From contig CAYPSS010000004.1 of the NCBI GenBank assembly GCA_964413735.1, forward strand, positions 39,538-103,537: a DNA stretch of 64,000 nt, written 5' to 3'. Source of the DNA: an uncultured Gammaproteobacteria bacterium (lineage in GTDB: Bacteria; Patescibacteriota; Patescibacteriia; UBA11705). A program made the translations under genes and the position numbers. Within the stretch, counting starts at the first letter, position 1. Every line of letters starts with the position of its first letter. A model generated the notes under the pieces. It did no database searches. It worked only from the letters and a program-made list of their open reading frames with translations, and was not told the DNA's origin. Shown here one piece after another: positions 5,409 to 54,753 of this stretch.

Positions 5409-5416
5409 AATTAGTA

Positions 5417-6562: not shown

Positions 6563-6685
6563 TTTTCCCTCCCTTAGGGATTAAGAGCTAAGTCAAGGAA
6601 CATTCGCACCTTTTAAATTAACATAAATTATAAAAAAAGTCAATGGCAAAAACCACTGACTGATTATTTGGGATTAAAATGAATA

Positions 6686-7543
6686 TTAGTCAATACTTTG
6701 AGCCGCATCAATGATAAAGCGAATTATAATATAACTGCTGAAAATAATTGCTAGTCCAATGATCGCTGATATCATGGCGGCTCGGCCTTTTTTCACATAA
6801 TCTGGTCGACCAGCTGAGATCATCCACATTGCTCCTCCAATAATAAATACCACCAGTGCCACTGAGCCAGAAATGCCAATAATATATTTCACAATTCGAC
6901 CAAGAATAATATTAATGTTGGTTTCTCCTAAAGGATTGGGCAAAGATTGAGTAGTGGGGGCCCCAGTATTGGTATTGGGGTCACCGGTGTTGGTATTGGG
7001 GTCACCGGTGTTGGTATTGGGGTCTCCGGTATTGGTTAATGGGCTGTTAGGATCAGCAATACAAAAGTCTTGAGAACAAATATTACTGATACATTCATAA
7101 TTTTCTGTGCATGGACTACCGTCGGATTCTTTGGGATTACAAATTGACGGGCTTAGTGATAAGTTACAAAATTGATTATCAGGGCAAGCAGTTTGAGAAG
7201 TACAGCTGACAGTACCGGTTCCGGCAACTAACTCGCATTTTTGTGTTTGAGAATTACATTCACCTTGCAAACATTGGCCATCACCATCACAAGTACCACC
7301 TAAAGGAATTTTAAGGGTACATGATTGAGAAAAATCAGTAGGATTTAATTTGCAAAAATAACCATTTGGACATTGTGAGTCATATTCACATGAGGCACTA
7401 CCACAATAACCCAAACTAGTACAAAATTCCCCTGTTGAACAATCAGCATTGGTCGAACAAGGAGTTTGTTGAGCAAAAATAGTTGTAGGAATGATAAGAA
7501 GTGAAAATAGAATAAAGAAGAGAAAAAAGTGTTTGATTTTCAT
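6686..7543 (-). CDS. Secreted cysteine-rich repeat protein with C-terminal pilin-like (VirB2/TrbC-like) two-helix membrane module
   Basis: 285 aa. Signal peptide; at least five C-x-C-rich modules; internal 21-nt tandem repeat encoding TGDPNTN x4. The C-terminus ...VALVVFIIGGAMWMISAGRPDYVKKGRAAMISAIIGLAIIF is paralogous to the N-termini of ORFs 23264 and 25472. Confidence 0.6.
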   Translation of the reverse strand: MKIKHFFLFFILFSLLIIPTTIFAQQTPCSTNADCSTGEFCTSLGYCGSASCEYDSQCPNGYFCKLNPTDFSQSCTLKIPLGGTCDGDGQCLQGECNSQTQKCELVAGTGTVSCTSQTACPDNQFCNLSLSPSICNPKESDGSPCTENYECISNICSQDFCIADPNSPLTNTGDPNTNTGDPNTNTGDPNTNTGAPTTQSLPNPLGETNINIILGRIVKYIIGISGSVALVVFIIGGAMWMISAGRPDYVKKGRAAMISAIIGLAIIFSSYIIIRFIIDAAQSID

Positions 7544-7545
7544 AT

Positions 7546-9009: not shown

Positions 9010-9149
9010 GTATTTTTCTTAATGTTTATATTATAACATTATTTGTAATTTTAGCAATTTTAAGGAAATTTACAAATAAAAATGGTTATTTTAAAACCAA
9101 TATATTTTTAAAAAATTAATGATAAATATGAAGATTAATATTCTAAAGG

Positions 9150-39591: not shown

Positions 39592-39692
39592 ATATATTAA
39601 TTAAATATAAAAACAGGGGTTTAAATGCCCCGGTTTTTATTTTATGTTTTATCCATATTTTATGGTATAATTTTAACATTAGATTAAATTAT

Positions 39693-40850
39693 ATGCTCGA
39701 ACTATTCTCCCAAAAATTAAAAGCCAACTTCACCCCTGAACAGCAGGATTATTACTTGCAATTGGAAAATGAATTAAAAGAACTTTTGGGCGGTCAAACG
39801 CAGGAGGAAGTACTTGCCAGTGGCGATCCGGAAATTATCCAACAAATTTTGAAGATCAAGCAAGAAATGCTTAATTTTGTGTTAACCAAGAAGACTAGGG
39901 AAATGGTTAGGCAGGAGGAAGCGATGAACCAAAGATTGTTAAAACAAAACGAAGAACAGCTGGAATATGAACAACAAATAGCAATCTTAGACAACATAGA
40001 AATAAAGCATAATGCCGGACAGCAATTAACAGAAAGTGAATTAAAGTTTTTGTATCGACTTGATGGTTTGGGATTGCCTTTTGATGTTAATGATAAAGAA
40101 CAAAAAAGGTTGGATTCTATTATTTTCAATCGTAATTTTAATCAGGAGGTAGCGAATCTTTTGGGTTGTCGAGAGGATCAGGTATGTCTTCTTCAAAATG
40201 AAGGTTTTGATAATGGAGATATGGTTTATCATCTTGGGGATATTGATCTACCAGATGTGACTCAAGTTGACGATCTTGTTTTGCCGAAAATAATTAATGG
40301 CGGAGTGTTTTTAAGAGATTTAATTTTTCCGGAAGGTTTACAATTACCTCAAACGGTGGTCGGACACTTGGATTTATTTCTATTGGCCAGTGTCGATGAT
40401 TTGAGTTTCCCTGATTTTGTGGCTGGTGATGTGAATTTAAGAAGTTTGCTTAAAGCCAAGGATTTACGTTTGCCTAAAGTAATTGGCATGGATGTTAATT
40501 TAAATGATTTGGAGGAAGTGGACAAGTTGATTTTTCCGGATCAGGTTCCAGGGAATGTTAATTTGTCAAAGTTAAAAAATTTCAAAAATTTAATTTTGCC
40601 ACGAAGTATTGGGGGTAATTTGGATTTAAGATCTTTGTCCAGTCCTGACGGATTGGTTTTACCACGGTTTATTGGTGGTAGTCTTGATTTGAGTGGATTA
40701 CAAACTTTGGAAGGATTGATTATCCCATTGGGAATTAAAAAAGTGGATTTAAGTCATTTTTCTGATGAAGAAATGGAAAAAATAAGAGAGAAATTCCCTC
40801 ATGTGGAATTTGCCAATTATCAAAATTCGTTTTCTTCAAGTATAATTTAA
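39693..40850 (+). CDS. LRR-like repeat protein, paralog A (conserved 75-aa N-domain + coiled coil + ~22-aa L-x-L-P-x-x-I-G-G-x-L-D-L repeats)
   Basis: 385 aa. N-terminal domain MLELFSQKLKANFTPEQQDYYLQLENELKELL... is about 90% nucleotide-identical to genes 47832 and 49030. About 10 degenerate repeats of the type LRLPKVIGMDVNLNDLEEVDKLIF; shared C-terminus EKIREKFPHV. Confidence 0.7.
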   Translation: MLELFSQKLKANFTPEQQDYYLQLENELKELLGGQTQEEVLASGDPEIIQQILKIKQEMLNFVLTKKTREMVRQEEAMNQRLLKQNEEQLEYEQQIAILDNIEIKHNAGQQLTESELKFLYRLDGLGLPFDVNDKEQKRLDSIIFNRNFNQEVANLLGCREDQVCLLQNEGFDNGDMVYHLGDIDLPDVTQVDDLVLPKIINGGVFLRDLIFPEGLQLPQTVVGHLDLFLLASVDDLSFPDFVAGDVNLRSLLKAKDLRLPKVIGMDVNLNDLEEVDKLIFPDQVPGNVNLSKLKNFKNLILPRSIGGNLDLRSLSSPDGLVLPRFIGGSLDLSGLQTLEGLIIPLGIKKVDLSHFSDEEMEKIREKFPHVEFANYQNSFSSSII

Positions 40851-40868
40851 ATTTACAATAATATCATT

Positions 40869-41882
40869 ATGAAAATGCAATTGAAAACCAGAGTTTTGAT
40901 TTTACTGCTGATTTTGGTTTTGGAAATTGCCATTTTAACGGTTTTATTAACTTTGAAAGATTATGGGGAAAATAATAAACCGATTATTGGCGTGACTTTT
41001 TCTAAGGTTTACGTGGAAAATGATTTGGGTTTGGATTGGCGACAAGCTTATTTGGCAATTTTGGATGATTTGCAAATCAAAAATATCAGAATTGCGGTAC
41101 CATGGAATAAAATTGCGCCAACCTTTGGTCAATATGAGTTTCAAGATTATGATTGGATGATGGAGATGGCCGATGAAAGAGGCGTTAAAGTGATTTTAGC
41201 TATTGGACATCGCACCCCACGGTGGCCGGAATGCCATACACCTGATTGGTTAAGAGATTTAACGACGGAAAAAGCGGACCTAGAACAACAACAAATGATT
41301 GCCGATGTAGTGACACATTTTAAAAAATATTCCGCTTTGTGGTGGTGGCAAATTGAAAATGAACCTTTTTTGGATTCATTTGGCGAATGTCCCCCCATGT
41401 CAATTGAACAATTAAAAAAAGAAATTGCCATTGTCAAAAGTTTGGATTCGCGTCCAATCCTGATTACCGATAGTGGTGAGTTAAGTTTTTGGTTCAAAAC
41501 CGGTCATTTGGGAGATAAGTTTGGTCATACTTTGTATCGGGAAGTTTATAATCAATATTTGGGATTTTTCCGTCATGTTTTCCCACCTTCATTTTATTGG
41601 TTAAAGGCGCGAATGGTAAATTTGGCGCCAAGTGATGTGATTGTAGCGGAGTTGCAAGCTGAACCTTGGGTACCCTATGGTTATAATTTAACTTTTGATT
41701 CTGATCAGTTGAAGAAAATGATGACCGCGGAAAAGTTATCCTCTAATTTTGAATTTGCTCGTCGAACCGGTGCACGGGAAATTTATTTTTGGGGGGTGGA
41801 GTGGTGGTATTGGTTAAAGGAAAAACAAAATGATCCATCGTTGTGGCAAGAAGCCAAAAAAATAATAAATCAATATAAATAA
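40869..41882 (+). CDS. Membrane-anchored glycoside hydrolase, clan GH-A-like (GH5/GH113-type)
   Basis: 337 aa. N-terminal TM helix; the WQIENEP motif is the conserved Asn-Glu-Pro acid/base catalytic triplet of clan GH-A TIM-barrel hydrolases; candidate nucleophile region AELQAEPW. Confidence 0.5.
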   Translation: MKMQLKTRVLILLLILVLEIAILTVLLTLKDYGENNKPIIGVTFSKVYVENDLGLDWRQAYLAILDDLQIKNIRIAVPWNKIAPTFGQYEFQDYDWMMEMADERGVKVILAIGHRTPRWPECHTPDWLRDLTTEKADLEQQQMIADVVTHFKKYSALWWWQIENEPFLDSFGECPPMSIEQLKKEIAIVKSLDSRPILITDSGELSFWFKTGHLGDKFGHTLYREVYNQYLGFFRHVFPPSFYWLKARMVNLAPSDVIVAELQAEPWVPYGYNLTFDSDQLKKMMTAEKLSSNFEFARRTGAREIYFWGVEWWYWLKEKQNDPSLWQEAKKIINQYK

Positions 41883-41884
41883 AT

Positions 41885-42436
41885 ATGAAAAAAATTATTT
41901 TGGTCATAATAATGATGGTTATGCTCGCGCCTTTTGTTGTTAATGCTCAAAGCGGATATTTTTTGCGCCCCGGTATTTTGCCGGATTCAAAGGTTTATTG
42001 GTTGGATTTGTGGGGCGAGGAAGTGAGATATTTTTTCACTTTTGGGGAAATAAATAAGGCGGATTACAAAATCAGGGTAGCCAAAGAACGACTAAGTGAA
42101 TTGAAACGACTTTACGAATTGGGTGTAACCAGCTACACTGATATGTTGCTGACAAAATATGAAAATGAAATTGAAATTGCCTTGGCGCTGTATGCTCAAG
42201 CCAAAATCGATTCAGCGGAAAAAATCAAGGAACTGCAAAATTATACGGAAGAGCAAATTATTTTAAATGAGGGTGATGTAAAAAATTATTTGATCAATAC
42301 TGTCCCTGATGAATATGATTCGGCGGTCAATCAAACTATGGGAGCGATCGGTTATGGCTTCCAGCAATTATTAATTCATTTGGAACAGAAAAACAAGGAA
42401 ATTCAACAGAAAAAAGCTGATTTGGGGGTTAAATAA
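41885..42436 (+). CDS. Hypothetical secreted coiled-coil protein
   Basis: 183 aa. Signal peptide ...FVVNAQS; alpha-helical, charged. Confidence 0.45.
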   Translation: MKKIILVIIMMVMLAPFVVNAQSGYFLRPGILPDSKVYWLDLWGEEVRYFFTFGEINKADYKIRVAKERLSELKRLYELGVTSYTDMLLTKYENEIEIALALYAQAKIDSAEKIKELQNYTEEQIILNEGDVKNYLINTVPDEYDSAVNQTMGAIGYGFQQLLIHLEQKNKEIQQKKADLGVK

Positions 42437-42494
42437 AATTTTCAATTGTAGTTAATTTTTGTTATAATGAAATATCAATATTCAATGATTTTAT

Positions 42495-45011
42495 ATGAAT
42501 TTTGAAACGCCCGTAGTTGGGCAAAAAAAATTGGAAGTGGCGGTGGCCAAAAATATTCCCCAAAAACATCAGAAATATTTGGAAAGAGCCAAGCAGTTTT
42601 TGGAACAACGCCAAGCGGTTTTGACTGATATTGCCGGTGATCGATCACTTCGTTATTCCATTGGTAAGGGTTTTTTTATAAATTTAGAGGAGGGGATTAT
42701 CAATGTTGATATTGGGTTTTGGGAAAAGCAAGAAAAATATGGTTGGAGCGATGAACAAATGTTTTGGGCGGTGTGTCATGAAATTGCGCATTTTTGGGAT
42801 TTACGGGAGGATCCGGAAGGGATGCTGGCTAACTTTGAATACATGAAACACAAAGGGATTGAAGTGGCGGAAGTGGTGGAACAAATTTTAAGGCGGAAAT
42901 ATCCCCAATTACCGGAATATTTAACGAAAAAAAAGCACAAGATCAGTAAACGTGATCCACGTCGGTATTCCGGCTTGGAAGTATTTATTATAAAACGATT
43001 TCGAGAATTTTATAATTGTTTGGATGATATTTATGTTAATAAAAGAGTCGGCCGAAAAGTTCTTCCGTTTTTAATTGAAGAAAGTAGTTTAAGTGATCTG
43101 CGCATCAGTTCGGTGGTGGAGGATTTGTATCGTGAACATTTATTTCCTGCTTCAGAAAAAAAGGATAAACCGGGTGAACGAATGGATTTTTATCATTTGG
43201 AAGATAGTGCCAAGCATACTCAGTTAATGTATTATTTATTACGCAAAAGAATGGTGCCTGACCAACCAATTATTGTGGATGATGAAGTTAAGGATATTTT
43301 ACAAAGCACTGATTTGGGTGGCGTGCCATTTGAGACATTTGTGGATTTGTTGGTAACGCCGGGTATTGCAGGTACAAAAAGTGATAGTCGGGCGGGAATC
43401 AGATATCAGAAAATTAGACAGTTTGTTGAACCGGTTTTTATCAAATTATTATTGCAAGATATGGAAAATGAAGAAATTCCTCCGGAATCAGAAACCAAAC
43501 CGGAGGGCGGTGCAGGTGGTGAAGGTGGTGATTCGAGTGGTGAACCTTCTGAACCGCAAGATTCAGATGATTCTTCAGGCGAGCCAGGTTCAAGTGATCA
43601 ATTGCCACAGCCCGATGGTAATAAATCGGAAAAAGATGATGATGAGGATGATGATGGAGAAGATGGCGATGAAGGTAAAGATGGCGATAAGGATAAAGAT
43701 AAAGATGGTAGTGGTGAAGGGAAAGATGGTGATAAAGATCAGGGCAAGGATAAAGATGGCGGTGATGGTAAAGAGGGCGATAAAGATCCCAAAGATGGGA
43801 AAGAACCAAAGAGTGGTAAAGAATCAAAGAGTGGTAAAGAATCATCTGACGGTAAAAAGAAAAAAACCAATCCATGGAAATCACCCGGGAGTAAAGAGCA
43901 ACAACAGATTAATGAAGATACGGTTCGTGATTTCCTTGATTCCAAAAGAAAAAAAGAAAGTCAAGAAAAACGAGACAAGAAAAAGGCCCGAAGACTTGAT
44001 ACCCCGCAAGCGCGTCAACGTGAAATGCTCGAAGTAGCGGATCAAGAATTTTCTCAAACGCATAATGTTCCGGTTGAGGCGATTAAAAAGTATCGTTCAA
44101 TTGCCAATGAAGTTTGGCCGTTTCAAATGGAAATGGCACAGGTTTTTGAATTAATCAGTCGAAAAATTCGCAGTCAAGTTTCCATGGTTTGGGATCGTTA
44201 TTATCATAGTGGTCGCTTGGATGTGCAAAAGTTTATTCGTAAGTACGGTCATTTCTTGCAAGAAGGAGCGGTGGACTTTATTCCGTTTGATGCGTTATCT
44301 TCTTATGAAAAAAAACAATTTTTGGAAAAACTGATCATTAAACCGGATGAATTTCGTTTGCGTTTGGTGATTGACAGTTCAGGGTCAACTAATGGTGCGG
44401 TGATGGAAACAATGTTGCGCGTGATTGTATTGTATTTGGAATCACTGGCAACTTTTGAAGACAAAATTACCCGAATGTTCAAGGAAGAATCGCTGACTAT
44501 TCCGCCCTTAAAAATTAACACGCAGTTGATTCAGTTTGGTGATACGGCCAAAGTTTTGAAGCCTTTGCATTTAACACGGGTTATTCCTCAGGCGCAAGAA
44601 CGAGCGGAACGAATTAACGGGGTTTATTCCATTGCTGTTGGTGGAAGTACTTATGATGATACGGCTTGGGCGGAGGTTTTGAGAACTCGTAACCCGGGTG
44701 ATGAGGAAAAGATCAAACAGGGTGATTTGTTGGATTTGGCGATTGAAATTACCGATGGTGCTTCATCTAATCCCGAAGGTACGGCGCAAATGGTGGATCA
44801 GGTGCATGAATCCGGAATTTTGGCGCGGGCGATTCAGATTAATTTAGGCGATGGCCCAGAGGCTCAAAATGCTCAACAAATATTTGAGGGCATTTGGGGG
44901 GAAGAGGGTGAAAGTATTCGTACTCTTAGTGATTTGGTGCCGGCTATGTATAATTTATTAAAACAAGCCATTGAGCAAATTGATTTTGTGGTGGAAATGG
45001 TGGATGAATAA
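42495..45011 (+). CDS. Zincin-like (HExxH) domain - acidic disordered linker - von Willebrand factor A (vWA, MIDAS) domain fusion protein
   Basis: 838 aa. N-terminal HEIAHFWD (HExxH). A 170-aa D/E/K/G low-complexity linker; frame-shifted ORFs inside it are artifacts. C-terminal vWA with MIDAS LVIDSSGSTNG (DxSxS) and ITDG motifs. Confidence 0.7.
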   Translation: MNFETPVVGQKKLEVAVAKNIPQKHQKYLERAKQFLEQRQAVLTDIAGDRSLRYSIGKGFFINLEEGIINVDIGFWEKQEKYGWSDEQMFWAVCHEIAHFWDLREDPEGMLANFEYMKHKGIEVAEVVEQILRRKYPQLPEYLTKKKHKISKRDPRRYSGLEVFIIKRFREFYNCLDDIYVNKRVGRKVLPFLIEESSLSDLRISSVVEDLYREHLFPASEKKDKPGERMDFYHLEDSAKHTQLMYYLLRKRMVPDQPIIVDDEVKDILQSTDLGGVPFETFVDLLVTPGIAGTKSDSRAGIRYQKIRQFVEPVFIKLLLQDMENEEIPPESETKPEGGAGGEGGDSSGEPSEPQDSDDSSGEPGSSDQLPQPDGNKSEKDDDEDDDGEDGDEGKDGDKDKDKDGSGEGKDGDKDQGKDKDGGDGKEGDKDPKDGKEPKSGKESKSGKESSDGKKKKTNPWKSPGSKEQQQINEDTVRDFLDSKRKKESQEKRDKKKARRLDTPQARQREMLEVADQEFSQTHNVPVEAIKKYRSIANEVWPFQMEMAQVFELISRKIRSQVSMVWDRYYHSGRLDVQKFIRKYGHFLQEGAVDFIPFDALSSYEKKQFLEKLIIKPDEFRLRLVIDSSGSTNGAVMETMLRVIVLYLESLATFEDKITRMFKEESLTIPPLKINTQLIQFGDTAKVLKPLHLTRVIPQAQERAERINGVYSIAVGGSTYDDTAWAEVLRTRNPGDEEKIKQGDLLDLAIEITDGASSNPEGTAQMVDQVHESGILARAIQINLGDGPEAQNAQQIFEGIWGEEGESIRTLSDLVPAMYNLLKQAIEQIDFVVEMVDE

Positions 45012-45039
45012 AATTAAATAAATAATTTAATATAACAAT

Positions 45040-47811
45040 ATGACAAAAGAGCAAATGCCTCGAAGAATTTATACCAAGGTTGAGGATCTATCAGCCCAAG
45101 AAAAATCAACTTTGGATTTACAAGAAAATGAAGTGAAAGAAATTTATCGTCGGCGAGAAGAACTTTTCACGCGTTGGCGTAATATTTCGAAATTTTTTCG
45201 AAAAAAAGTGGAACAACAAGTTAGAACCAAACTCGGCAAAGGAAAAAAATCCGAAAAAGCAGGAATGGAAATTATAGAAAGACCTTTGCGTTTAATGGGG
45301 CTTGATGAAATGGGGTTGGAGGCTATTATGGCTTGTGTTGATCGTGAAGCGGTTTTGAAAGATCAGCAAAAAAATAATCCGCATAGCCGTAATTGGGAAC
45401 AAGATGCGGATCGTTTTATTACTCGCAATTTAACCATGGATGTTAAAGGTATTTTACAGGATTTACGAGCTTTGAAACAAGGTGATGAAGATGCTGATTT
45501 TCATCCGGAGCGTTCGGCGGATTTTTATGAAGAAAACTTGCACGATTTACATGTTGCCCGAGAAAAATTGAAAAAATTTCAACAAGAATTGGATGCTTTG
45601 CTCTTGGATATTAATATGGCGAAAAAAGCCGGACAAAAGCGCTTGGTGAAAAGATTTGGTGAGGAGTATCATGAAAAAGAGCGAGAATATTTGGATTATA
45701 TTAGAACTGATCGACTAGCTTTTTTGGTTGTTCAAGCTAAGCGATTGCGACAAATGAAGGAAACTTTTGATAAAAATGGTCGCATTGTGGAAACCCCATA
45801 TGTTCAACAAATGATGGCGCGTATTGAAGATGTGATTGATGGTAATCGGCCGGTTTTTATTCATGGTGAATTGGGGAGCGGTAAAACCGCTTTGGCTAAA
45901 CATTTGTGTGTGTCTAGAATATCCAGTGAATATTTGGATCGTTGGGAGCAGGGTAATGAAGAGTTGGGCTTAAAACCGCATCCGCGACCGGTTCGTGGTT
46001 CTTTGTCGCGTTTGGAATATGAAAAACAAATGGAAGAATGGGAAAATCTGCGACGAAATGCAGCGGAACCGATTTTAATTTCCGGGCACAAAGAAATTGA
46101 AGTGGAAACATTTATTGGTGGGTTTAAGATTGAACGAATGAAAAAAATGACACCCCAAGAACAGGTGGAATTTATTAAGGAAGAAAAAAGAAAATACCAA
46201 GAAAAATATAAGACTGAATCTGATCCCGATCAATTAAAGAAAGATTTGCAATTATTGGAACGAAGTTTAATGCAGTCTTTTGATACGGCGGTGGAAACAA
46301 CCGCTTATTTGGGAAAGTTTTATCGGGCCATGTATGAAGGTCGTCCGATAATTATTGATGAAGTTAATGCGATCCCACACCATGTTTTGATTATGCTTAA
46401 TGAGTTGTTGACTCTAAAACCGGGGGATACGGTCAATCCGGCGGTGGATAATTTGCCGTCTTTCAAGGTGGCTAAAGGTTTTTCGGTGATATTGACCGGT
46501 AACTGGCGTCCGGGTAGTAATAAATTATATGTTGGCCGTCAACAAATGGACGCCGCCTTTTTGTCTCGTTTGGCGATTATTCCTTATGATTTCTTGCCTA
46601 ATGCCACTGATGCCAGTGCTTTTATCAATGAACCGACAACGCCGGAAGAAGAACAGGAGAGACGAGAGCAGTTGGCTGGTAATGAATTAACGCAAATGTT
46701 GGTTGTTCGTTTAATGGATAGTCCCGGATCCGGATTTGAAGCGCCGGAAGATGCTTTTCAGAAAATCAATCGTTTAGCGATTGTTGCTCGTGGTATAGAA
46801 AATGTTTTGTCCAAAAATGACGTGGATCGCGAATTTTTCCCGGCTAATGCCAATGTGACCACTAATCCTAAGGATATTTTAAGTGAAAACGTTTTGTCTT
46901 TGCGTCATTTGATTCCCATTATTGAAGAATGGCGAGCTAACGGTTATTCGCGTGATTTGGATGAATATTTATTTTTGCATTATGTTGAACGATCACAACA
47001 GCGGCCGGAAGAGTTTGCTTACCTATATGAAATTTTGCAACGCGTTGGTGGTTTTTTCCCAACTTCAAAAGGTTGGCCAACAGCCGGGGCGTCTGATCTT
47101 TTGAAATTACTTGAAGAATTTAATGTTTCTAAGAAAATGTATGGTGCGATGGAATCAGGCGATCGTCGACAATCAGCTTTGTCAGCCGTTGATACGGAAG
47201 TGGCTCCACTCAAACATTATTCCATGGTGGAGGTGGTGGAACAATTATTCGGTAAATTGCCGGAACGTAAACGCGTGGGGAAATTAATTAAGCCAATAAA
47301 ACCCGAAGAAGTGGAAATTGATCCTTTGGTAGAAGCTCAGCGGAGATTATTAGCCGAGCAAATAGCGGAAATCGATCGTAAACTCTTTGAAAATTTAGAG
47401 GGAGATAGAGAGGCTATTACCAAAAAAGATTTGGCTCAATTTCATAAATGTCGTGAAGATCAGGTGAGTTTAACAAAAGAAGAATTTTTGGCCGGAAGAG
47501 ATATTGTCTTTCATTATGGAAATCTTGATTTGGGAGAATTTGTTAATCCGGAAGGATTGATTTTACCAAGTCAAATTGCCGGTGATCTGGATTTAAGTGG
47601 TTTGCAAACCATCGAAGGTTTGAAATGGCCTGATAGCGTGATAGGAGTGGTGTACTTGAATAATATAACTTCGGCTAAGGGATTGTTTGAATTACCGGTG
47701 GGTATTCGAACTATAGTTTTTGGAAAAGATATGCCAGATTCAGAGATTGAAAAACTACAAAAACATTATTCCGAAGATCTTAAGAAAACTTTTAAAAAGG
47801 CTACAGCTTAA
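45040..47811 (+). CDS. MoxR-like AAA+ ATPase with N-terminal coiled-coil region and C-terminal LRR-like module shared with the adjacent paralog family
   Basis: 923 aa. Walker A HGELGSGKTALAKH; MoxR-type Walker B/box IIIDEVNAIPHHVLIMLNELL (cf. DEINRAPPKTQSALLEAMQE); sensor-1 VILTGN; Arg-finger-region FLSRL. The C-terminus CREDQVSLTKEEFLAGRDIVFHYGNLDLGEF... matches the LRR paralogs. Confidence 0.75.
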   Translation: MTKEQMPRRIYTKVEDLSAQEKSTLDLQENEVKEIYRRREELFTRWRNISKFFRKKVEQQVRTKLGKGKKSEKAGMEIIERPLRLMGLDEMGLEAIMACVDREAVLKDQQKNNPHSRNWEQDADRFITRNLTMDVKGILQDLRALKQGDEDADFHPERSADFYEENLHDLHVAREKLKKFQQELDALLLDINMAKKAGQKRLVKRFGEEYHEKEREYLDYIRTDRLAFLVVQAKRLRQMKETFDKNGRIVETPYVQQMMARIEDVIDGNRPVFIHGELGSGKTALAKHLCVSRISSEYLDRWEQGNEELGLKPHPRPVRGSLSRLEYEKQMEEWENLRRNAAEPILISGHKEIEVETFIGGFKIERMKKMTPQEQVEFIKEEKRKYQEKYKTESDPDQLKKDLQLLERSLMQSFDTAVETTAYLGKFYRAMYEGRPIIIDEVNAIPHHVLIMLNELLTLKPGDTVNPAVDNLPSFKVAKGFSVILTGNWRPGSNKLYVGRQQMDAAFLSRLAIIPYDFLPNATDASAFINEPTTPEEEQERREQLAGNELTQMLVVRLMDSPGSGFEAPEDAFQKINRLAIVARGIENVLSKNDVDREFFPANANVTTNPKDILSENVLSLRHLIPIIEEWRANGYSRDLDEYLFLHYVERSQQRPEEFAYLYEILQRVGGFFPTSKGWPTAGASDLLKLLEEFNVSKKMYGAMESGDRRQSALSAVDTEVAPLKHYSMVEVVEQLFGKLPERKRVGKLIKPIKPEEVEIDPLVEAQRRLLAEQIAEIDRKLFENLEGDREAITKKDLAQFHKCREDQVSLTKEEFLAGRDIVFHYGNLDLGEFVNPEGLILPSQIAGDLDLSGLQTIEGLKWPDSVIGVVYLNNITSAKGLFELPVGIRTIVFGKDMPDSEIEKLQKHYSEDLKKTFKKATA

Positions 47812-47831
47812 TATTTGATTTGTAGAATAAA

Positions 47832-49028
47832 ATGCCCGAACTATTTCCCCAAAAACTAAAAGCCAATTTCCCCCCTGAACAGCAGGATTATTATTTACGA
47901 TTGGCAAATGAATTAAAAGAACTTTTGAATGGTCAAACGCAGGAGGAAGTGCTGGCCAGTGGCGATCCGAAAATTATCCAAAAAATTTTGAAGATCAAGC
48001 AAGAAATGCTGAATTTTGTGTTAACCAAGAAAACTAGGGAAATGGTAAAACAAGAAGAAAAAGAACAAGAAGAAAGAATATTGAGACAAAGAAAAGAGCA
48101 ATTGGAAAAAGAAAGACAAACAGTAGGTTTAGATGAAATTGAAAGAAAACAAAAGGCGGGTGAAGAATTAACTGATAATGAATTGAAGTTTTTGTATCGG
48201 ATTGATGGACTTGGTTTGTCTTTTTCATCTAGTAATGAAGATAAAAAACGAGTAGAAGATATTATAAATCAACGAAATATTAAGGAAGATGTTTCTTATG
48301 TTTTAGGTTGTTCAGAAGATCAAGTGAGTTTAACAACACAAGAGTTTTTAGCTGGGACAGACATTGTTTATCATTTTGGATTTCTTGATTTAAGAAGTTT
48401 AACGAACATTGAAGGAGTAAAATTACCGCAAATTATTGGTGGGGGTCTTTATTTAGGCAGTCTAACGAGCGCTGAAGGATTACAATTACCGCAAAGTATT
48501 GCAGGAAGTCTTTATTTAAGCCGTCTAACGAGCGCTGAAGGATTACAATTACCGCAAATTATTGGTGGAAGTCTTGATTTAGAAAGTATAACGAGCGCTG
48601 AAGGATTACAATTACCGCAAAGTATTGGAGGGTGGCTTGATTTAAGTAGTATAACGAGCGCTAAAGGATTACAATTACCACAAAGTATTGGCGAAGATCT
48701 TTATTTAAACAGTTTAACGAGCGCTGAAGGATTACAATTACCGCAAATTATTGCAGGAAGTATTTATTTAGGCAGTCTAACGAGCGCTGAAGGCTTACAA
48801 TTACCGCAAAGTATTGGTGGAAATCTTGATTTAAGCAGTCTAACGAGCGCTGAAGGATTACAATTACCGCAAAGTGTGGGAGGAAATCTTAATTTAAACA
48901 GTCTAACGAGCGTTGAAGGATTAGAAATCCCTTTGGGTATTAAATCACTTTGTTTTGAAAAAATGTCAGATAATGAAATTGAAAAATTAAAACAAAAATA
49001 TCCGCATATAACAGTAACAAAAGAATAA
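47832..49028 (+). CDS. LRR-like repeat protein, paralog B, with 9 near-identical 21-aa repeats (LTSAEGLQLPQSIGGNLDLSS)
   Basis: 398 aa. Same N-terminal domain as paralogs A and C; the repeat block is encoded by 63-bp tandem DNA repeats. Confidence 0.75.
   Translation: MPELFPQKLKANFPPEQQDYYLRLANELKELLNGQTQEEVLASGDPKIIQKILKIKQEMLNFVLTKKTREMVKQEEKEQEERILRQRKEQLEKERQTVGLDEIERKQKAGEELTDNELKFLYRIDGLGLSFSSSNEDKKRVEDIINQRNIKEDVSYVLGCSEDQVSLTTQEFLAGTDIVYHFGFLDLRSLTNIEGVKLPQIIGGGLYLGSLTSAEGLQLPQSIAGSLYLSRLTSAEGLQLPQIIGGSLDLESITSAEGLQLPQSIGGWLDLSSITSAKGLQLPQSIGEDLYLNSLTSAEGLQLPQIIAGSIYLGSLTSAEGLQLPQSIGGNLDLSSLTSAEGLQLPQSVGGNLNLNSLTSVEGLEIPLGIKSLCFEKMSDNEIEKLKQKYPHITVTKE
48386..48930 (+). repeat. About 8.6 copies of a 63-bp in-frame tandem repeat (VNTR) inside LRR paralog B
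   Basis: Unit ctaacgagcgctgaaggattacaattaccgcaaagtattggtggaaatcttgatttaagcagt is repeated head-to-tail with only a few substitutions per copy. Confidence 0.85.
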
Positions 49029-49029
49029 T

Positions 49030-49809
49030 ATGCCCGAACTTTTTTCCCAAAAATTAAAAGCCAACTTCACCCCTGAACAGCAGGATTATTATTTACAATT
49101 GGAAAATGAATTAAAAGAACTTTTGGGCGGTCAAACGCAAGAGGAAGTACTTGCTAGTGGCGATCCGGCAATTATCCAACAAATTTTGAAGATCAAGCAA
49201 GAAATGCTGAATTTTGTGTTAACCAAAAAGACTAGAGAAATGACTAGACAAGAGGAGAAAGAAAGATTGAAACAAGAAAAACGATCAATTAGTTTGGATG
49301 AAATTGAGAGAAAACAAAAAGCCGGAGAAGAATTAACAGATAATGAATTGAGGTTTTTGTATCGGATTGATGGGTTTGGATATTTTTACTCTGAATATTC
49401 AAATGAAAGGAGAGTGTTAGATATAATAAAAAAAAGAAATGTTAAACAAGATGTCTCGTATCTTTTGGATTGTGATGAAGAGCAGGTAAGTTTAACTGAA
49501 GAAGAATTTTTAAATAACAAAGATATTTTGTATCATTGTAATAATCTTATTCTTCCTACTACTAATATGGCACAATTGAAATTACCTAAATATGTGCGGG
49601 GTATTCTTCAATTACCTGGAGTGACAAATGCCACTGGATTAATATTTCCTGAGGTTTTTCAAGTTCATTTACCAAATTTACAATCTACAGTAGGTTTGGA
49701 ATTTCCTGATTCCATTAAATTTGTGGCGGTGGATGCAAGAATGCCAGATAAGGAATTCAATAATTTGAGAATCAAATATCCTCAGATTCTTTTTACAAAG
49801 TTTACATAA
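49030..49809 (+). CDS. LRR-like repeat protein, paralog C (short; few degenerate repeats)
   Basis: 259 aa. The N-terminal 75 aa is nearly identical to paralogs A and B; the start is 2 bp after the stop of paralog B. Confidence 0.7.
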   Translation: MPELFSQKLKANFTPEQQDYYLQLENELKELLGGQTQEEVLASGDPAIIQQILKIKQEMLNFVLTKKTREMTRQEEKERLKQEKRSISLDEIERKQKAGEELTDNELRFLYRIDGFGYFYSEYSNERRVLDIIKKRNVKQDVSYLLDCDEEQVSLTEEEFLNNKDILYHCNNLILPTTNMAQLKLPKYVRGILQLPGVTNATGLIFPEVFQVHLPNLQSTVGLEFPDSIKFVAVDARMPDKEFNNLRIKYPQILFTKFT

Positions 49810-49925
49810 ATTAATAAAATTAAGACTTGAGTTTTTTCTATAGTTACTAGGAGTCATGATTGACTTTTTTTTGTTAATATATTAAATTAATTGCACTAGT
49901 ATGAGTCCTTTTTACCGGAGGAGCT

Positions 49926-50723
49926 ATGAATTTCGAGGGTGTTCTTTTTACGGATATTGATGGAACTTTTAAACGGCGCAGTATGTTTCTGGATATTTTG
50001 GAAGCTTTGATTGCCGGTGGGTTGATTGATTTGACGGTAAAACAGGAAATTGATTGTTTGGAAAGTTTGTGGCAAAAACGTCAAGGTTCTTTTGATGAGT
50101 ATATTGGTCGGGCGGTGAAATTGTTTGAAAAATCATTGGCCGGATTGCCGGAGCAAGAAGTTAACTCCATTATTGAACAAACGGTTGATGAAAAATGTTC
50201 GCAGGTTTATGCTTTCACGCGTGAGTTGATTAAGAAAAAGCGAGATCAAGGTTGGCTGGTTTGTGCGATCAGCGCTTCGCCTTATTTGGGCGTACAGCGA
50301 TTTTGCCAGTATTGGGGAATTTCGTTTTTTATTGGTACGCACATGGAAGTACGGGATGGTTATTTCACCGGTAAACGCGATGTGGTAGATGGTAAGAGGA
50401 AAGTTGATTTTATGCAGGATTTGCTTACTCGGCCGGATTTGGCTCGTTTACCTATTGGTAATGTTTGGGCGATTGGCGATACTTTGGGTGACATGCCGAT
50501 GTTGCAAAATGCAGGAACACCAATTGCTTTTAACCCGTCGGCGGACTTGCTGAGTGCTTGTCGTAAAGAATTGCCCGGTACCACGGTGGTTGTGGAAAGA
50601 AAAGATGTGGTGGTGGAAATGTATCATGCGGAGATTTGTTTGTGGCGCGTGTTGTCTGACGGTTCATTACAGTTTCTGAATAGTTCCGCTAAACCGAATT
50701 TCGTTAGTATTTTGGATTATTGA
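49926..50723 (+). CDS. HAD-superfamily hydrolase (HAD-IB/phosphoserine-phosphatase-like)
   Basis: 265 aa. Motif I FTDIDGTF (DxDxT); motif IV GDTLGDMPM. Confidence 0.7.
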   Translation: MNFEGVLFTDIDGTFKRRSMFLDILEALIAGGLIDLTVKQEIDCLESLWQKRQGSFDEYIGRAVKLFEKSLAGLPEQEVNSIIEQTVDEKCSQVYAFTRELIKKKRDQGWLVCAISASPYLGVQRFCQYWGISFFIGTHMEVRDGYFTGKRDVVDGKRKVDFMQDLLTRPDLARLPIGNVWAIGDTLGDMPMLQNAGTPIAFNPSADLLSACRKELPGTTVVVERKDVVVEMYHAEICLWRVLSDGSLQFLNSSAKPNFVSILDY

Positions 50724-50755
50724 AAATTGACCGAGGAAATAGGCCTCGGTTTTTT
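50696..50755 (+). repeat. Direct repeat copy A (3' end of the HAD gene + terminator), partner at 53941-54000
   Basis: 60 bp with 55/60 identity to copy B; it includes ...SILDY* and the hairpin accgagg-aaatagg-cctcggt plus a T-run. Confidence 0.85.
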
Positions 50756-50756
50756 C
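50728..50756 (+). terminator. Rho-independent terminator of the HAD gene
   Basis: Hairpin accgaggaaataggcctcggt followed by TTTTTT. Confidence 0.7.
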
Positions 50757-50880
50757 TTAGAAAGAGATATCTTAATGAGCAAAAATTAATGTTGGAATTG
50801 TTTGACATTAATTGTTGTTTTTGGTAAATTAGTTTGTTGGTGTTCTTTACAATTTAATTTTCTCACAACAGGAGGAACAG

Positions 50881-51414
50881 ATGAATAATGTGGATGTTTT
50901 TAATGATATGGATCATGATATTAGCCATAAGGCAAGGGAAATAGTTGATTTCTTGAAATCTCAAGGGATAAATTTCACTTCCGGTGTCCCGTGTGGTGTT
51001 TTGCGTGATTTAATTCGTTGTTTAACAAATGATTCTGAAATAATGTTTGTTCCAGCGACAAGGGAGTCAGAGGTTGTTGGTTTAGCTGCAGGAGCGACTT
51101 TTGCAGGTAAAAAGGTGGTTGTCTTTATGCAAAATTCTGGCTTATTTTTAGCTTCGAATGATATTGCCTCTTTACTCCTCCCATATGAATTACCGGTATA
51201 TTTTTTGGTCACTTATAGAGGGTGTCCGGATGAAGATGCTATTCAACATAAATACACAGGTCAAGCCACTGAAGCACTTCTTAAATCTTTAGATATTGAA
51301 TATCTTATTTATAATTCAAAAAATGGTTTAAATGATGTTCAATATTTATATTCACGAATGGTGGATACTGGTTTGCCGGTTGTTCTATTGTTAAAACGGG
51401 GGTGGGATAAATGA
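50881..51414 (+). CDS. TPP-dependent decarboxylase, alpha (Pyr-domain) subunit - sulfopyruvate/phosphonopyruvate decarboxylase family
   Basis: 177 aa. Size and pattern match ComD-like alpha subunits (GVPCGVL...VPATRESEVVGLAAGATFAGKK). Confidence 0.6.
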   Translation: MNNVDVFNDMDHDISHKAREIVDFLKSQGINFTSGVPCGVLRDLIRCLTNDSEIMFVPATRESEVVGLAAGATFAGKKVVVFMQNSGLFLASNDIASLLLPYELPVYFLVTYRGCPDEDAIQHKYTGQATEALLKSLDIEYLIYNSKNGLNDVQYLYSRMVDTGLPVVLLLKRGWDK

Positions 51415-51989
51415 AAAGAGCGGACTCATTACAGGAGATTTTCGATCTATTTGATAACAATGACATTGTTGTTTCCACGACGGGTTTGATAAGTAGAGAA
51501 ATTTTTGAGAAATTTGATTCAGAACGCAATTTGTATTTTCCTGGGTCTATGGGTTTAGTTGCGTCTGTTGGTTTGGGATTATCCTTATGTCGGACCGATA
51601 GAAGAGTTATTGTTATCGATGGTGATGCAAGTTTATTAATGAACTTGAATTCTCTTATGTTGATTGGGACGCAGTTACCACCTAATTTAATCCATTTTGT
51701 GTTGGATAATGAAGCGTATGGTTCGTGCAGTGAAGAAAAATCATTGTCAGATCAAGTAAACTTGGAAGGACTGGCAAAATTTTTTGGTTATCGATATACT
51801 TATGTTGTTACAGAAAGCGGTATTTTAAGATCGATTTATGGGCAAATAAAAGATGGTCCAGCATTAATAGTAGTAAAAATTCAACTTGGCGGACGGCGTG
51901 ATTTTGTCAGACCAAATAATTTACCACAAATCAAAAACCGTTTTTATCGATTTTTATCAATAACCCCAAAAGAAAGGAGAAAATTATGA
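51411..51989 (+). CDS. TPP-dependent decarboxylase, beta (PP-domain) subunit - sulfopyruvate/phosphonopyruvate decarboxylase family
   Basis: 192 aa. TPP-binding motif IDGDASLLMNLNSL...LDNEAYGS (GDG-x24-27-N). 4-bp overlap with the alpha subunit. Confidence 0.65.
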   Translation: MKRADSLQEIFDLFDNNDIVVSTTGLISREIFEKFDSERNLYFPGSMGLVASVGLGLSLCRTDRRVIVIDGDASLLMNLNSLMLIGTQLPPNLIHFVLDNEAYGSCSEEKSLSDQVNLEGLAKFFGYRYTYVVTESGILRSIYGQIKDGPALIVVKIQLGGRRDFVRPNNLPQIKNRFYRFLSITPKERRKL

Positions 51990-52810
51990 TGTTCAAAGGT
52001 CAAAAAATTTTTAATGCTTCGTTTGACATTTATGCAAAGAATTATCATAGCGCTCGTCCATCATATCCACAACAATTGTTTATTGATCTACATGATATTT
52101 GTGGTTTGACACCAGAAAGTTCTATTTTGGAATTGGGAGCTGGAAGTGGTATAGCAACGCGCGAACTGGGGAAATTTGGATGTCGTGTCGTAGGAATTGA
52201 GCCAGGGGCAAATTTGGTTAGTATTGCCAAGGAACAAACTGCTGATCAGCCTCATGTTGAAGTTTTAGAGGCAACATTTGAAAACTTGGAAACAAGGGAA
52301 AAATTTGATGCTGTGACGGCTTTTACTATGTTTCATTGGTTAAAAGATGATGATAAATACAGTAAGTTGGTTGATTTATTGAAAGATGATGGAAATTTAG
52401 TTATTGTTTGGAATAGTTTTTTTCAAAGTCAAGATCCGGTTGTGGCTGAGATTAATGCGCTTTATTCGAGAATTTTAAGCGAAGTATATGAAACAAGTAG
52501 TGGAGTAAATGAGGCAGTCTTGGCAAAGTTACGTAATCGTGAAATTGAATTGATGCAGAATGAGCATTTTGTTGTTTATGATTTACGGCGCTATGTTGTT
52601 GTTTATCACTATGATAGTGAGACATATCCCAATTTGCTTAACACTTTTCCTAAGATCATTAATCTTGAAGATGTAAAACGGCAAGAATTTTTATCTCAAG
52701 TGGCGGATGTTGTGAAGCGACACGGAACAATTTCAGTGCCAGTAATGACCACGTTATTGGTCTGCAAAAAAAGAGGTTTTTTTCTTTCGGCAATGGCGAC
52801 AACCAAATAA
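51986..52810 (+). CDS. Class I SAM-dependent methyltransferase
   Basis: 274 aa. Motif I ILELGAGSGIATREL; an acidic residue at the end of beta2 (VVGIEP). Confidence 0.7.
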   Translation: MMFKGQKIFNASFDIYAKNYHSARPSYPQQLFIDLHDICGLTPESSILELGAGSGIATRELGKFGCRVVGIEPGANLVSIAKEQTADQPHVEVLEATFENLETREKFDAVTAFTMFHWLKDDDKYSKLVDLLKDDGNLVIVWNSFFQSQDPVVAEINALYSRILSEVYETSSGVNEAVLAKLRNREIELMQNEHFVVYDLRRYVVVYHYDSETYPNLLNTFPKIINLEDVKRQEFLSQVADVVKRHGTISVPVMTTLLVCKKRGFFLSAMATTK

Positions 52811-52822
52811 AAGAGGTGGGGC

Positions 52823-53917
52823 ATGATTAATAAACAAAGAATTGAAGCTTTAGTGGAAAAATATAATATTCCTTTCGAAGACATTTTGTTTATTGCTTTG
52901 AATTATTATGGGATAGATTTTTATTGTTCATTTAACCGAATGAGGATGGGTTTATTATTAAGTGAAGATCCGTTATTTAGTTTTGCCCACAGCTTGGGAG
53001 AAAATAATTATTATTTTGCTTTGGCTGTGAATTGTTTAAGCCCATTTAGAATTGAAGGAAAATTTTTGACATTTGATCATTTGGTTGTCGGGCAAGTAAT
53101 TGAGCCTTCGGAAGATTTTTGTGATTCGAATTATCCAAGAAGAAATGGAACAGTCTTAAATTTTAACCCGAATTCACGAACATCTTGTCGTGGTTGTAAG
53201 TTTTGTTATACTGGATATCAAGTATCGCGAGACAGGAAAAAAGTTGCTTGTCGTGAGGAAATGCGCGTGTTTATAGAAAAATGGATGGAATTGAGTAGCT
53301 TTGATGATTTGTCTCATTTGATTCAAGTTGCTGTTGTGACGGGATGTTATGATAACGAATCTGAATTATTAAATTTTTTGTTGGTTTTTAATGAAGTTTT
53401 ATCCGTTTATAATTTTAGTGGAGAATTGTTTTATTTAGGATCTCAAATTACTAAATTAGATTCATTGCAAATATTACGAGAAATTAAAAATTTTGCTTAT
53501 TGTGTTTCTCTTGAGTGTTTTGATCGAAGAGAAGAACTTTTGCGTGAAAATAAGAGCAGTTTTTCACTTAACCAGGCACGGCAATTAATGATAGCAGCAA
53601 AAGACATGGGGTTTAGAATAAACTTTTCTTATATTGTTGGATTGGAATCCTTAGAAACGATTGCGCGAGGTTTTGGCGAAATGTTAGGTTGTACCAACAG
53701 TTTCCCAGTCGTGAATATTATGCAAAGACACGTTTATCATTCTAAAGAAATTTTGGATCCACTGGCTAATGATATAGAATATTTTTTACAGGCACGGAAG
53801 ATACTTGAAAGTGTTTTTGTTGAACAGTTATGGCGTCCTAGGGTTTGGGAGAATTATCGAAGCTTATGGTATCTAAAATTTGGCGAAGAAGTGTTAACGG
53901 GAATTAGAACCCCTTAA
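52823..53917 (+). CDS. Hypothetical protein with Cx2Cx2C cluster, possibly a non-canonical radical-SAM-like enzyme
   Basis: 364 aa. The TSCRGCKFCYTG triad has the spacing Cx2Cx2C rather than the canonical Cx3Cx2C; a later YIVGLESLET resembles the radical-SAM GxIxGxxE motif. Assignment uncertain. Confidence 0.45.
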   Translation: MINKQRIEALVEKYNIPFEDILFIALNYYGIDFYCSFNRMRMGLLLSEDPLFSFAHSLGENNYYFALAVNCLSPFRIEGKFLTFDHLVVGQVIEPSEDFCDSNYPRRNGTVLNFNPNSRTSCRGCKFCYTGYQVSRDRKKVACREEMRVFIEKWMELSSFDDLSHLIQVAVVTGCYDNESELLNFLLVFNEVLSVYNFSGELFYLGSQITKLDSLQILREIKNFAYCVSLECFDRREELLRENKSSFSLNQARQLMIAAKDMGFRINFSYIVGLESLETIARGFGEMLGCTNSFPVVNIMQRHVYHSKEILDPLANDIEYFLQARKILESVFVEQLWRPRVWENYRSLWYLKFGEEVLTGIRTP

Positions 53918-53940
53918 ACATGTTGTTACATAGCTGGGTC

Positions 53941-54000
53941 GGATTTTGTCAGTATCTTGGATTATTAAAAATTGACCGAGGAAATAGGCCTCGGTTTTTT
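53941..54000 (+). repeat. Direct repeat copy B (degenerate duplicate of the HAD 3' end + terminator)
   Basis: 55/60 identical to 50696-50755. It still encodes ...SILDY-stop in frame, but without an upstream gene body; the track ORF 53920..54117 is a remnant, not a gene. Confidence 0.85.
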
Positions 54001-54191
54001 TATTTTTTGAAAAAGTATAATGTTTCACGTATAACGTATAACGTATATATCTATAGCCTTATATTTTCATACCTAATACGTTATACGAATTCCAGATGTT
54101 ATCCACAAGTGAGGTGAAAAAAACGGTTTGATAATTTACGACGCTTTTGTTTTCCCAAATTTTAGAGTAAAAAAAACAAAATTATGAATAT

Positions 54192-54251
54192 TTGCTCGTG
54201 CGTAGATATAGTGGTATAATTAAGTCATATTATACTATATATTGTATTTTG
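54192..54251 (+). promoter_or_regulatory. Putative nrdR-nrdDG promoter (TTGCTC-17-TATAAT, extended TG) overlapped by two AT-rich 16-bp palindrome-like NrdR-box candidates
   Basis: -35 at 54192-54197 and -10 at 54215-54220. Box candidates are gtagatatagtggtat (54203-54218) and atactatatattgtat (54232-54247), about 29 bp apart. Confidence 0.35.
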
Positions 54252-54267
54252 CCAATAAAAGCATATT

Positions 54268-54753
54268 ATGAAATGTCCAGTTTGTTACCATGAAGATACC
54301 AAAGTATTGGATTCTCGTCCGGCCGCCGATGGTTTTGCGATCAGACGGCGTCGAGAATGCAATAAATGCGGTTTTCGTTTTTCCACTTATGAGGAAGTGG
54401 AAATTTTAGAGCTGATGGTGGTGAAAAGAGATGAACGACGCGAATCATATGACCGGGAAAAGTTGGAATCAGGATTGAAAAAAGCCTTAGAAAAACGACC
54501 GGTTGATCATGATCGTTTCCGTCAATTGGTGAATAATATTGAACGAGATATTCAGGTGGAGGTGAAAAATCAAAAAAGCGGTAATGAAATTGCCAGTGAT
54601 AAAATCGGACAATTGGCAATGGAAAATTTGAAAAAGGTTGATAAGGTGGCGTATATTCGTTTTGCTTCGGTTTACAAGGCTTTTGAAGATGCGGAAGAGT
54701 TTATGAAAGAAATACAGGAGTTGGTAAAGAAGCGCAATGGCGGTGATAAATAA
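54268..54753 (+). CDS. nrdR: Transcriptional repressor NrdR (zinc ribbon + ATP-cone)
   Basis: 161 aa. MKCPVCYHEDTKVLDSRPA...RRRECNKCGFRFSTYE is the canonical NrdR N-terminus. Confidence 0.9.
   Translation: MKCPVCYHEDTKVLDSRPAADGFAIRRRRECNKCGFRFSTYEEVEILELMVVKRDERRESYDREKLESGLKKALEKRPVDHDRFRQLVNNIERDIQVEVKNQKSGNEIASDKIGQLAMENLKKVDKVAYIRFASVYKAFEDAEEFMKEIQELVKKRNGGDK

Follow-up and report, generated by a model that had tools for sequence, protein, structure and literature searches.

Genomic islands inserted at the 3' ends of tRNA or protein-coding genes consist of foreign DNA bracketed by attL/attR-type repeats that keep the target gene intact, they are matched by an empty site in relatives, and they spread among related lineages through homologous recombination in their flanks. 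The locus described here resembles them in all these respects. It lies in a 64-kb stretch of a Patescibacteria contig (CAYPSS010000004.1, assembly GCA_964413735.1), referred to below as the window, where four co-oriented genes are bracketed by direct repeats of the 3' end of a HAD-IB family hydrolase gene (HAD; 49926..50723, + strand; PF12710, TIGR01488) and are followed by nrdR. Patescibacteria have tiny genomes and poorly documented gene flow. We consider it probable that a single insertion of an accessory, horizontally acquired four-gene operon duplicated the HAD end together with its terminator, and that the operon was later exchanged as a recombining unit. Comparisons with other contigs rest on metagenomic contigs, the related ones being short assemblies.

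The direct repeat (family D6) pairs positions 50695..50755 (copy 1) with 53940..54000 (copy 2), both on the + strand, and a column count of the local alignment gives 56 identical bases out of 61. The original prediction had reported 55 of 60 from 50696 and 53941, so that the repeat itself stands and its extent is corrected, starting one base earlier; likewise, the HAD end is indeed duplicated, with nine codons plus the stop rather than the five codons first read. After these codons each copy continues with an intrinsic-terminator hairpin (50729-50751 in copy 1) and a T-run. Copy 1 translates as P N F V S I L D Y stop (TGA) and copy 2 as S D F V S I L D Y stop, a HAD 3'-end remnant with no gene body upstream of it, as the earlier reading of S-I-L-D-Y-stop without a gene had it. 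All five differences between the copies fall within the 30-nt coding part, and the hairpin part is identical (31/31). The hairpins stand directly 3' of the stop codons, each with an 8-bp stem (five GC pairs) and a 7-nt loop followed by the T-run, and both scored terminator-like, with folding energies of -14.8 (copy 1) and -13.7 kcal/mol (copy 2). By this stem-loop and T-run pattern both copies are predicted intrinsic (Rho-independent) terminators, copy 2 being the putative terminator of the cassette.

The 44-nt core of the repeat occurs exactly twice in the window, where shuffled sequences lead to an expectation of zero, and the 27-nt hairpin plus T-run also occurs twice, even when three mismatches are tolerated. 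Neither the 61-nt repeat nor the conserved nrdR leader described below had a match in species-representative genomes, JGI metagenomes or viral contigs. A search for the repeat elsewhere, which had been proposed as a check, thus yields two copies in the window, the 64 kb of this genome that the search covered, and none in these three collections, and not the many intergenic copies of a dispersed element of the repetitive extragenic palindromic (REP) or miniature inverted-repeat transposable element type. An extension of the repeat upstream of 50695/53940 was seen only in loose gapped alignments and was unconvincing. The copy-2 remnant happens to be in frame with the last cassette gene (53915-53969), and read-through of the TAA would add 16 residues ending SDFVSILDY; this shared frame, with a chance expectation of 1 in 3, is probably meaningless.

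Relatives that keep FtsZ-HAD-NrdR-NrdD without the cassette show that empty sites exist. HAD is followed by nrdR, the arrangement that had been suggested for comparison, in L011/L012, L014 and L016/L017 (a Candidatus Falkowbacteria assembly), whose NrdD and NrdR are 82-86% and 72-78% identical to those of the window; the syntenic HAD upstream of nrdR in L011, L014 and L016 shares 38-42% amino acid identity with the window HAD. Gene order in these relatives is YbeY-DAGK-FtsA-FtsZ-HAD-NrdR-NrdD-NrdG-p100-RF1-PGAcap, and the window backbone matches it (YbeY at 36164, FtsA at 37044, FtsZ at 38374, then HAD, NrdR, NrdD, NrdG, RF1 and PGAcap in order), with two additions: an extra stretch of about 10 kb separates ftsZ from HAD, and the 3.2-kb cassette stands before nrdR. 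Where the cassette is missing, the relatives have in its place only their own HAD terminator and 0.2-1.2 kb of low-complexity DNA or small open reading frames (ORFs), and their HAD C-termini and terminators are unrelated to the repeat.

On the other side of copy 2, nrdR (54268..54753, + strand; PF22811, PF03477) is the first gene of the conserved nrdR-nrdD-nrdG block and is preceded by a conserved upstream region (54097..54267, + strand; TTATCCACA ... TTTACGACGC ... ATATAGTGGTATAATTA ... ATACTATATATTGTAT), which would represent the ancestral HAD-nrdR intergenic region with the nrdR promoter. This region is 95-100% identical among contigs of the window's own lineage (lineage A). Its conserved blocks 3' of copy 2, namely TTATCCACA, a TTTCCCGACGC-like block, and ATATAGTGGTATAATTA with a palindromic ATACTATAT...-type box, which from the published consensus we take to be an NrdR box, also stand before nrdR in L011, L014 and L016. 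Copy 2 would therefore occupy the ancestral position of the HAD end and terminator relative to nrdR.

The composition of the cassette sets it apart as well. Its G+C content at third codon positions (GC3) is 0.249-0.274, against a window median of 0.33 and values of 0.34-0.41 in the flanking core genes (0.41 in HAD, 0.36 in nrdR and nrdD), and the six lowest values among the 46 ORFs of the window belong to the four cassette genes and to two repeat-protein genes just upstream of HAD. The comparison of composition that had been called for thus separates cassette (0.25-0.27) and flanks, and the description of the cassette as accessory agrees with the empty sites, with this low GC3 and with its patchy distribution elsewhere.

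The locus is covered wholly or in part by close-relative contigs from independent samples (L001, L002, L003, L042, L043, L051 and L044-L050). Wherever the two junctions are covered (L002, L042, and L001 with L043, which come from one sample), copy 1 and copy 2 are both found, with 53-56 matches out of 61 between copy 1 and copy 2 in all contigs that have both; L003 begins inside copy 1 and has a full copy 2. The signature TCGGATTTTGTCA is common to copy 2 of the two cassette alleles, X (carried by the window) and Y, and is found in no copy 1, which points to a single origin of the duplication. On these comparisons the duplication appears to be old at the strain and species level, and not a fresh footprint. 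An arrangement shared by all relatives had been named as the mark of an old terminator duplication: complete close-relative contigs do share both copies, yet cassette-free relatives exist.

The hairpins are of two types, t1 (CGAGGAAAATTCCTCG) and t2 (CCGAGGAAATAGGCCTCGG), combined at copy 1/copy 2 as t1/t1 in Y-type loci, t1/t2 in L002 and L003, and t2/t2 in the window, where the sequence immediately around the copy-1 hairpin is still copy-1-like. The simplest reading is that the identical hairpins of the window arose by short-tract gene conversion between the copies, or by import of an already converted allele. With such secondary homogenisation, the 31/31 identity is not evidence of recent insertion. 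There is also a short downstream extension of the repeat (GTTAG...TTTG) between t1-type copy 1 and Y-type copy 2. As the differences between the copies are mostly at third codon positions, we first suspected that copy 2 had diverged while still coding in another lineage; when the differences were polarised with the HAD allele of a second lineage (lineage B), just three of them proved specific to copy 2. Two affect third positions and one affects a first position, a distribution without statistical significance, and the idea was dropped.

Comparison of the window with the two lineages reveals a mosaic. Relative to L001/L043, which share its background A, the window is 100% identical in HAD and nrdR, 96.7% in the cassette, and 83% with 57 gap columns in copy 2 plus spacer. 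Relative to L002, of lineage B, the pattern is reversed: 85.9% in HAD and 81.2% in nrdR, with 99.9% in the cassette (2 differences in 2967) and 99.2% in copy 2 plus spacer. The tract shared with lineage B, the recombinant X allele, spans 50951..54180 (+ strand): from 50951 to 53917 there are 2/2967 differences to L002 and 5/2967 to L003, from 53918 to 54180 there are 2/263 and 0/262, respectively, and the flanks of the tract are only 81-86% identical between the window and lineage B. Synonymous divergence between A and B is 0.48 in HAD and 0.96 in NrdD, and is saturated in NrdR; between cassette alleles X and Y it is 0.02-0.18, and between the cassettes of the window and L002 it is 0. The far lower values in the cassette imply a cassette pool much younger than the split of A and B, and the X allele (50951 to about 54180) appears, from these alignments, to have crossed recently between lineages via homologous recombination. 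In L002 the block of low divergence starts inside copy 1 (50703-50721) and ends near 54180, about 90 nt before nrdR; this left edge is the only one that falls within copy 1, present breakpoints between alleles being mostly not at the repeat.

Between copy 1 and the X tract lies a tract private to the window (Z; 50756..50950, + strand), made up of the leader, in which the promoter-like site lies, and 23 codons at the start of the first cassette gene. Together with the copy-1 hairpin (50722-50950) it is 89-91% identical to L001, L002, L003 and L042, which are 97-100% identical to one another over this interval and all carry 24 nt absent from the window; to its left HAD is 100% identical to L001, and to its right the cassette is 99.9% identical to L002. 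A further contig, L051, matches the window at 98.7% identity between 49344 and the copy-1 T-run and then continues into unrelated DNA, which suggests a conspecific strain whose content departs from that of the window precisely where copy 1 ends on the right. Behind the HAD terminator this contig (1381-1684) has the 3' end of a reverse-strand ORF without Pfam match.

Copy 2 is separated from the conserved nrdR leader by a hypervariable AT-rich spacer (54001..54096, + strand) with short repeats of the CGTATAA type and an imperfect 28-nt inverted repeat (I1, 54028-54087). Conspecific contigs carry three unrelated versions of it, X (window, L002 and L003), Y (L042, at 5035-5100, and L043) and W (L046 and L048-L050; L048, 1-90), which occur among contigs with identical NrdR and have motif repeats of the CGTATAA, TAGGGT and TATAC types. 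In L011 and L014, comparable motif-repeat DNA stands behind the HAD terminator. All seven Logan contigs L044-L050, which stem from different runs and encode identical NrdR, break 114-261 nt upstream of nrdR; strain heterogeneity could account for this, as could a disturbance of short-k-mer assembly by the repeat.

These data can be brought together as follows. In a Patescibacteria lineage resembling Falkowbacteria, an operon with its own promoter would have entered the HAD-nrdR intergenic region on a single occasion, duplicating some 61 nt of target sequence, or perhaps as much as about 75 nt. HAD would have been left intact and terminated through copy 1, and copy 2 would have provided the cassette with a terminator, shielding the downstream nrdR promoter from read-through. 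Whole-cassette alleles would then have been swapped by homologous recombination between lineages with flanks 14-19% diverged, and the two repeat copies would exchange sequence, giving the t1/t1, t1/t2 and t2/t2 states and explaining the identical hairpins of the window. The cassette insertion at the HAD 3' end and terminator put forward in the original prediction is borne out by empty sites, composition and distribution, while recombination as its mechanism is a matter of inference. The insertion could have proceeded through one crossover, either site-specific or RecA-mediated, of a circular intermediate that carried the HAD end, or through a one-off illegitimate or template-switch event; a duplication of 61 nt is too long for a transposase target-site duplication. 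Under simple Campbell-type integration of a circle at the repeat, sequence of the recipient type should follow copy 2 on its right; this model was set aside, the present alleles fitting it imperfectly since the shared block runs to about 54180 in L002 and the window.

Several observations weigh against this reading. A scan of the proteins encoded by the 3.2-kb island and by the 10 kb upstream of HAD revealed no recombinase or transposase, and no circular form or att-like site was seen elsewhere. Most present-day breakpoints (about 50950 and about 54180) lie outside the repeats, no donor of the Z tract was found, and the exact pre-insertion sequence is not reconstructable because the HAD C-termini of the closest cassette-free relatives are unrelated. 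The terminator roles of the hairpins and the promoter role of the site at 50802-50830 are putative, as pattern matches, and part of the mosaic could stem from chimeric assembly of strains that occur together.

The classic geometry of the locus, with repeats of a target 3' end bracketing compositionally distinct DNA and an empty site in relatives, would also be expected if the repeats were attL and attR of a site-specific integrative element that carried the HAD 3' end and whose integrase was lost or acts in trans, and a tyrosine-recombinase gene is in fact found about 8 kb downstream of nrdR in the relative L014. We regard this as unlikely, given that the island and the 10 kb upstream of HAD hold no integrase or transposase, that the 21 other cassette loci have no flanking repeats, that the cassette is absent from viral contigs and that the repeat sequence occurs at no other locus in the collections searched. 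Nor do we give much credence to an insertion without duplication, after which the HAD end and terminator were copied to the 3' end of the cassette and kept there as a terminator before nrdR. Short-tract copying does seem to occur, as hairpins exchange between the two positions (t1/t1, t1/t2, t2/t2), and selection for a terminator before the nrdR promoter is plausible; however, the 30 nt of HAD coding sequence in copy 2, which serve no purpose and bear a conserved signature of their own, would not be needed for a terminator alone, and two events would be required in place of one, with no cassette-bearing contig lacking copy 2. It is similarly doubtful that the repeat is a working homology arm, through which a promoter-bearing cassette loops out and re-enters related genomes by host recombination alone. 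If this were true, the locus would illustrate a recombinase-free way of moving accessory operons in reduced Patescibacteria genomes, with an undescribed pathway as cargo that combines a thiamine pyrophosphate (TPP) enzyme and a radical S-adenosylmethionine (SAM)-fold enzyme with a non-canonical CX2CX2C motif.

The empty sites themselves could be secondary, with the cassette ancestral at the locus and lost in relatives, for instance by deletion between the direct repeats. Recombination between the repeats would cleanly remove the cassette and leave an apparently empty site, and the cassette-free relatives examined represent three lineages only. The HAD C-termini and terminators of these relatives are nevertheless unrelated to the repeat, the GC3 of the cassette is at the low extreme of the window, the cassette is found at unrelated loci in other Patescibacteria, and its synonymous divergence between A and B is far lower than that of the flanks, all of which makes an ancestral cassette very improbable. 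Chance similarity, a dispersed element of the REP type and an artefact of assembly can all be taken as effectively refuted explanations of the repeat: terminator hairpins are short and can recur, and Logan contigs often break nearby, but the shuffles predict no occurrence, the 64 kb contain just two copies and the three public collections contain none, the repeat reaches 30 nt into coding sequence, and both copies are seen in independent assemblies from four other samples.

The inserted operon contains what had been described from the sequence, a promoter-like TTGACA-17-TAAATT site and four co-oriented genes, which overlap or abut. The site (50802-50830, + strand), a pattern match, has a TG before the second hexamer (extended -10). 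It is followed, all on the + strand, by the genes for the alpha (N-terminal TPP-binding; 50881..51414) and beta (C-terminal TPP-binding; 51411..51989; PF02775) subunits of a split, predicted TPP-dependent 2-oxoacid decarboxylase, a class I SAM-dependent methyltransferase (51986..52810; PF08241, PF13649) and a 364-amino-acid radical-SAM-fold protein (52823..53917) with the motif C122-x2-C125-x2-C128 (CRGCKFC). The alpha subunit scores 113.6 bits against TIGR03845, sulfopyruvate decarboxylase alpha (cutoff 147.95), and 104.6 against TIGR03297, phosphonopyruvate decarboxylase (cutoff 312.5); the beta subunit scores 138.7 bits against TIGR03846 (cutoff 221.5) and 151.7 against TIGR03297 (cutoff 312.5), and its closest solved structure is a putative phosphonopyruvate decarboxylase beta subunit (9iz3_B, E = 3.6e-26). 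The methyltransferase is generic, with no NCBIfam equivalog at or above cutoff.

For the fourth protein there was no Pfam or NCBIfam match, and a profile search of PDB sequences found nothing. The cysteines of its CX2CX2C motif (C122, C125 and C128) are invariant in 25 diverse homologues (alignment A1), as are C100 and C175, and the canonical CX3CX2C spacing is not found. The AlphaFold2 model has a pLDDT of 89 and a pTM of 0.89, and the 33 best Foldseek matches are all radical SAM enzymes (E down to 7.7e-8), with lipoyl synthase, biotin synthase, AprD4 and SuiB at the top. The motif is located in the loop that connects the first barrel strand (residues 111-114) to the first helix (144-157), which is the place of cluster binding in radical SAM enzymes. 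From this predicted structure the protein may adopt a partial or full TIM-barrel radical-SAM fold. As a working guess, the cassette could encode a three-step small-molecule pathway with TPP-dependent decarboxylation of a 3-substituted pyruvate, a radical-SAM transformation and a methylation. An Rfam scan detected no riboswitch or other family in or around the cassette, and PADLOC gave no informative defence match, its only match in the cassette being that of the methyltransferase to a methyltransferase-type model (mad2). A literature search on sulfopyruvate or phosphonopyruvate decarboxylase in Patescibacteria, or on CX2CX2C radical SAM proteins, returned nothing relevant.

Homologues of the 364-amino-acid protein number more than 226 at 46-58% identity, mostly in Patescibacteria, and the family forms about 315 representative clusters among 1.84 billion proteins; it is absent from the viral contigs searched. 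The four-gene operon is present in about 20 Patescibacteria genomes besides this one. The order TPP alpha, TPP beta, methyltransferase and radical-SAM-like protein is kept in 17 of 24 species-representative loci, and also in L007 and L009, the neighbours of these intact-order cassettes differ at every locus, and flanking direct repeats longer than 14 nt were found at none of the 21 other cassette loci. Conserved order, varying neighbours and lack of repeats define the operon as a patchy conserved module without constant ends, and the repeat of the window locus appears to be a one-off historical footprint and not a property of the cassette.

The radical-SAM-like family is always coupled to a SAM methyltransferase and nearly always adjoins a TPP-dependent enzyme. 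L004-L006 and three gut metagenome-assembled genomes (MAGs) labelled Clostridia (L025, L028 and L040) have the methyltransferase and radical-SAM-like pair alone. In these three MAGs (about 5065-9100) the place of the split decarboxylase before the pair is taken by a 687-amino-acid TPP enzyme of the phosphoketolase family (XFP_N, XFP), which suggests that a link with some TPP enzyme is obligatory. A second class I methyltransferase (about 270-325 amino acids) lies directly 3' of the radical-SAM-like gene at six loci (L022, L023, L027, L032, L033 and L041), and a NUDIX hydrolase is near the cassette at four. At L019 (2104-9095), in a distant genome whose NrdD shares 63% identity, nrdD-nrdG is followed after 1.2 kb by the cassette; that the cassette is again found near the anaerobic ribonucleotide reductase operon may be a coincidence.

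The extra 10 kb upstream of HAD (39600-49900) is absent in L011 and L014, where ftsZ is directly followed by HAD; together with the cassette downstream, this means that HAD is flanked by variable regions on both sides. The region encodes a glycosyl-hydrolase-like protein, a DUF5667 protein, an 838-amino-acid protein with a weak VWA match, a 923-amino-acid AAA_5/STAND-like NTPase and two paralogous repeat proteins. The last are encoded by adjacent genes (47832-49809; 398 and 259 amino acids) that share their N-terminal halves and have no Pfam match; the first contains eight tandem repeats of 63 nt, or 21 amino acids (48321-49013; families D1, D2 and D5), and their GC3 values of 0.22 and 0.26 are the window's lowest. 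At the other extreme, an ORF at 4563-5288 (- strand) with no Pfam match has a GC3 of 0.70, versus the median of 0.33, and is possibly a spurious antisense ORF.

The locus offers a clean sequence-level example of gene gain in the candidate phyla radiation (Patescibacteria), followed by homologous exchange of an operon across roughly species-level divergence, and a caution that a perfect-looking insertion footprint can stem from later homogenisation. It also draws attention to a small radical-SAM-fold family with a CX2CX2C motif that no Pfam or NCBIfam model matched. As a small genomic island with flanking direct repeats it is of a known kind and fairly ordinary; judging from the structural model, the more unusual element seems to be this uncharacterised CX2CX2C family, set in a conserved Patescibacteria operon.

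Compared with the 3'-end islands described at the outset, the locus differs in that no mobility gene was found in its 3.2 kb, which carry four metabolic genes, and in that the same cassette occurs elsewhere without such repeats; unlike theirs, moreover, its repeat holds a complete predicted terminator, whose copies appear to undergo homogenisation. The TPP enzyme shares its split into alpha and beta subunits, and its best profiles (TIGR03845, TIGR03846 and TIGR03297), with the sulfopyruvate decarboxylase ComD/ComE and with phosphonopyruvate decarboxylase. All its scores are, however, below the curated cutoffs, no PEP mutase or coenzyme M genes are among the annotated cassette neighbours or recurrent neighbour families, and the genes are always coupled instead to a methyltransferase and a radical-SAM-fold protein. 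The latter resembles LipA, BioB, AprD4 and SuiB in its predicted fold (Foldseek probability 1.0) and in its invariant cysteines after the first strand, and differs from canonical radical SAM enzymes in its CX2CX2C motif, one residue shorter than CX3CX2C, and in an extra N-terminal domain of about 100 residues.

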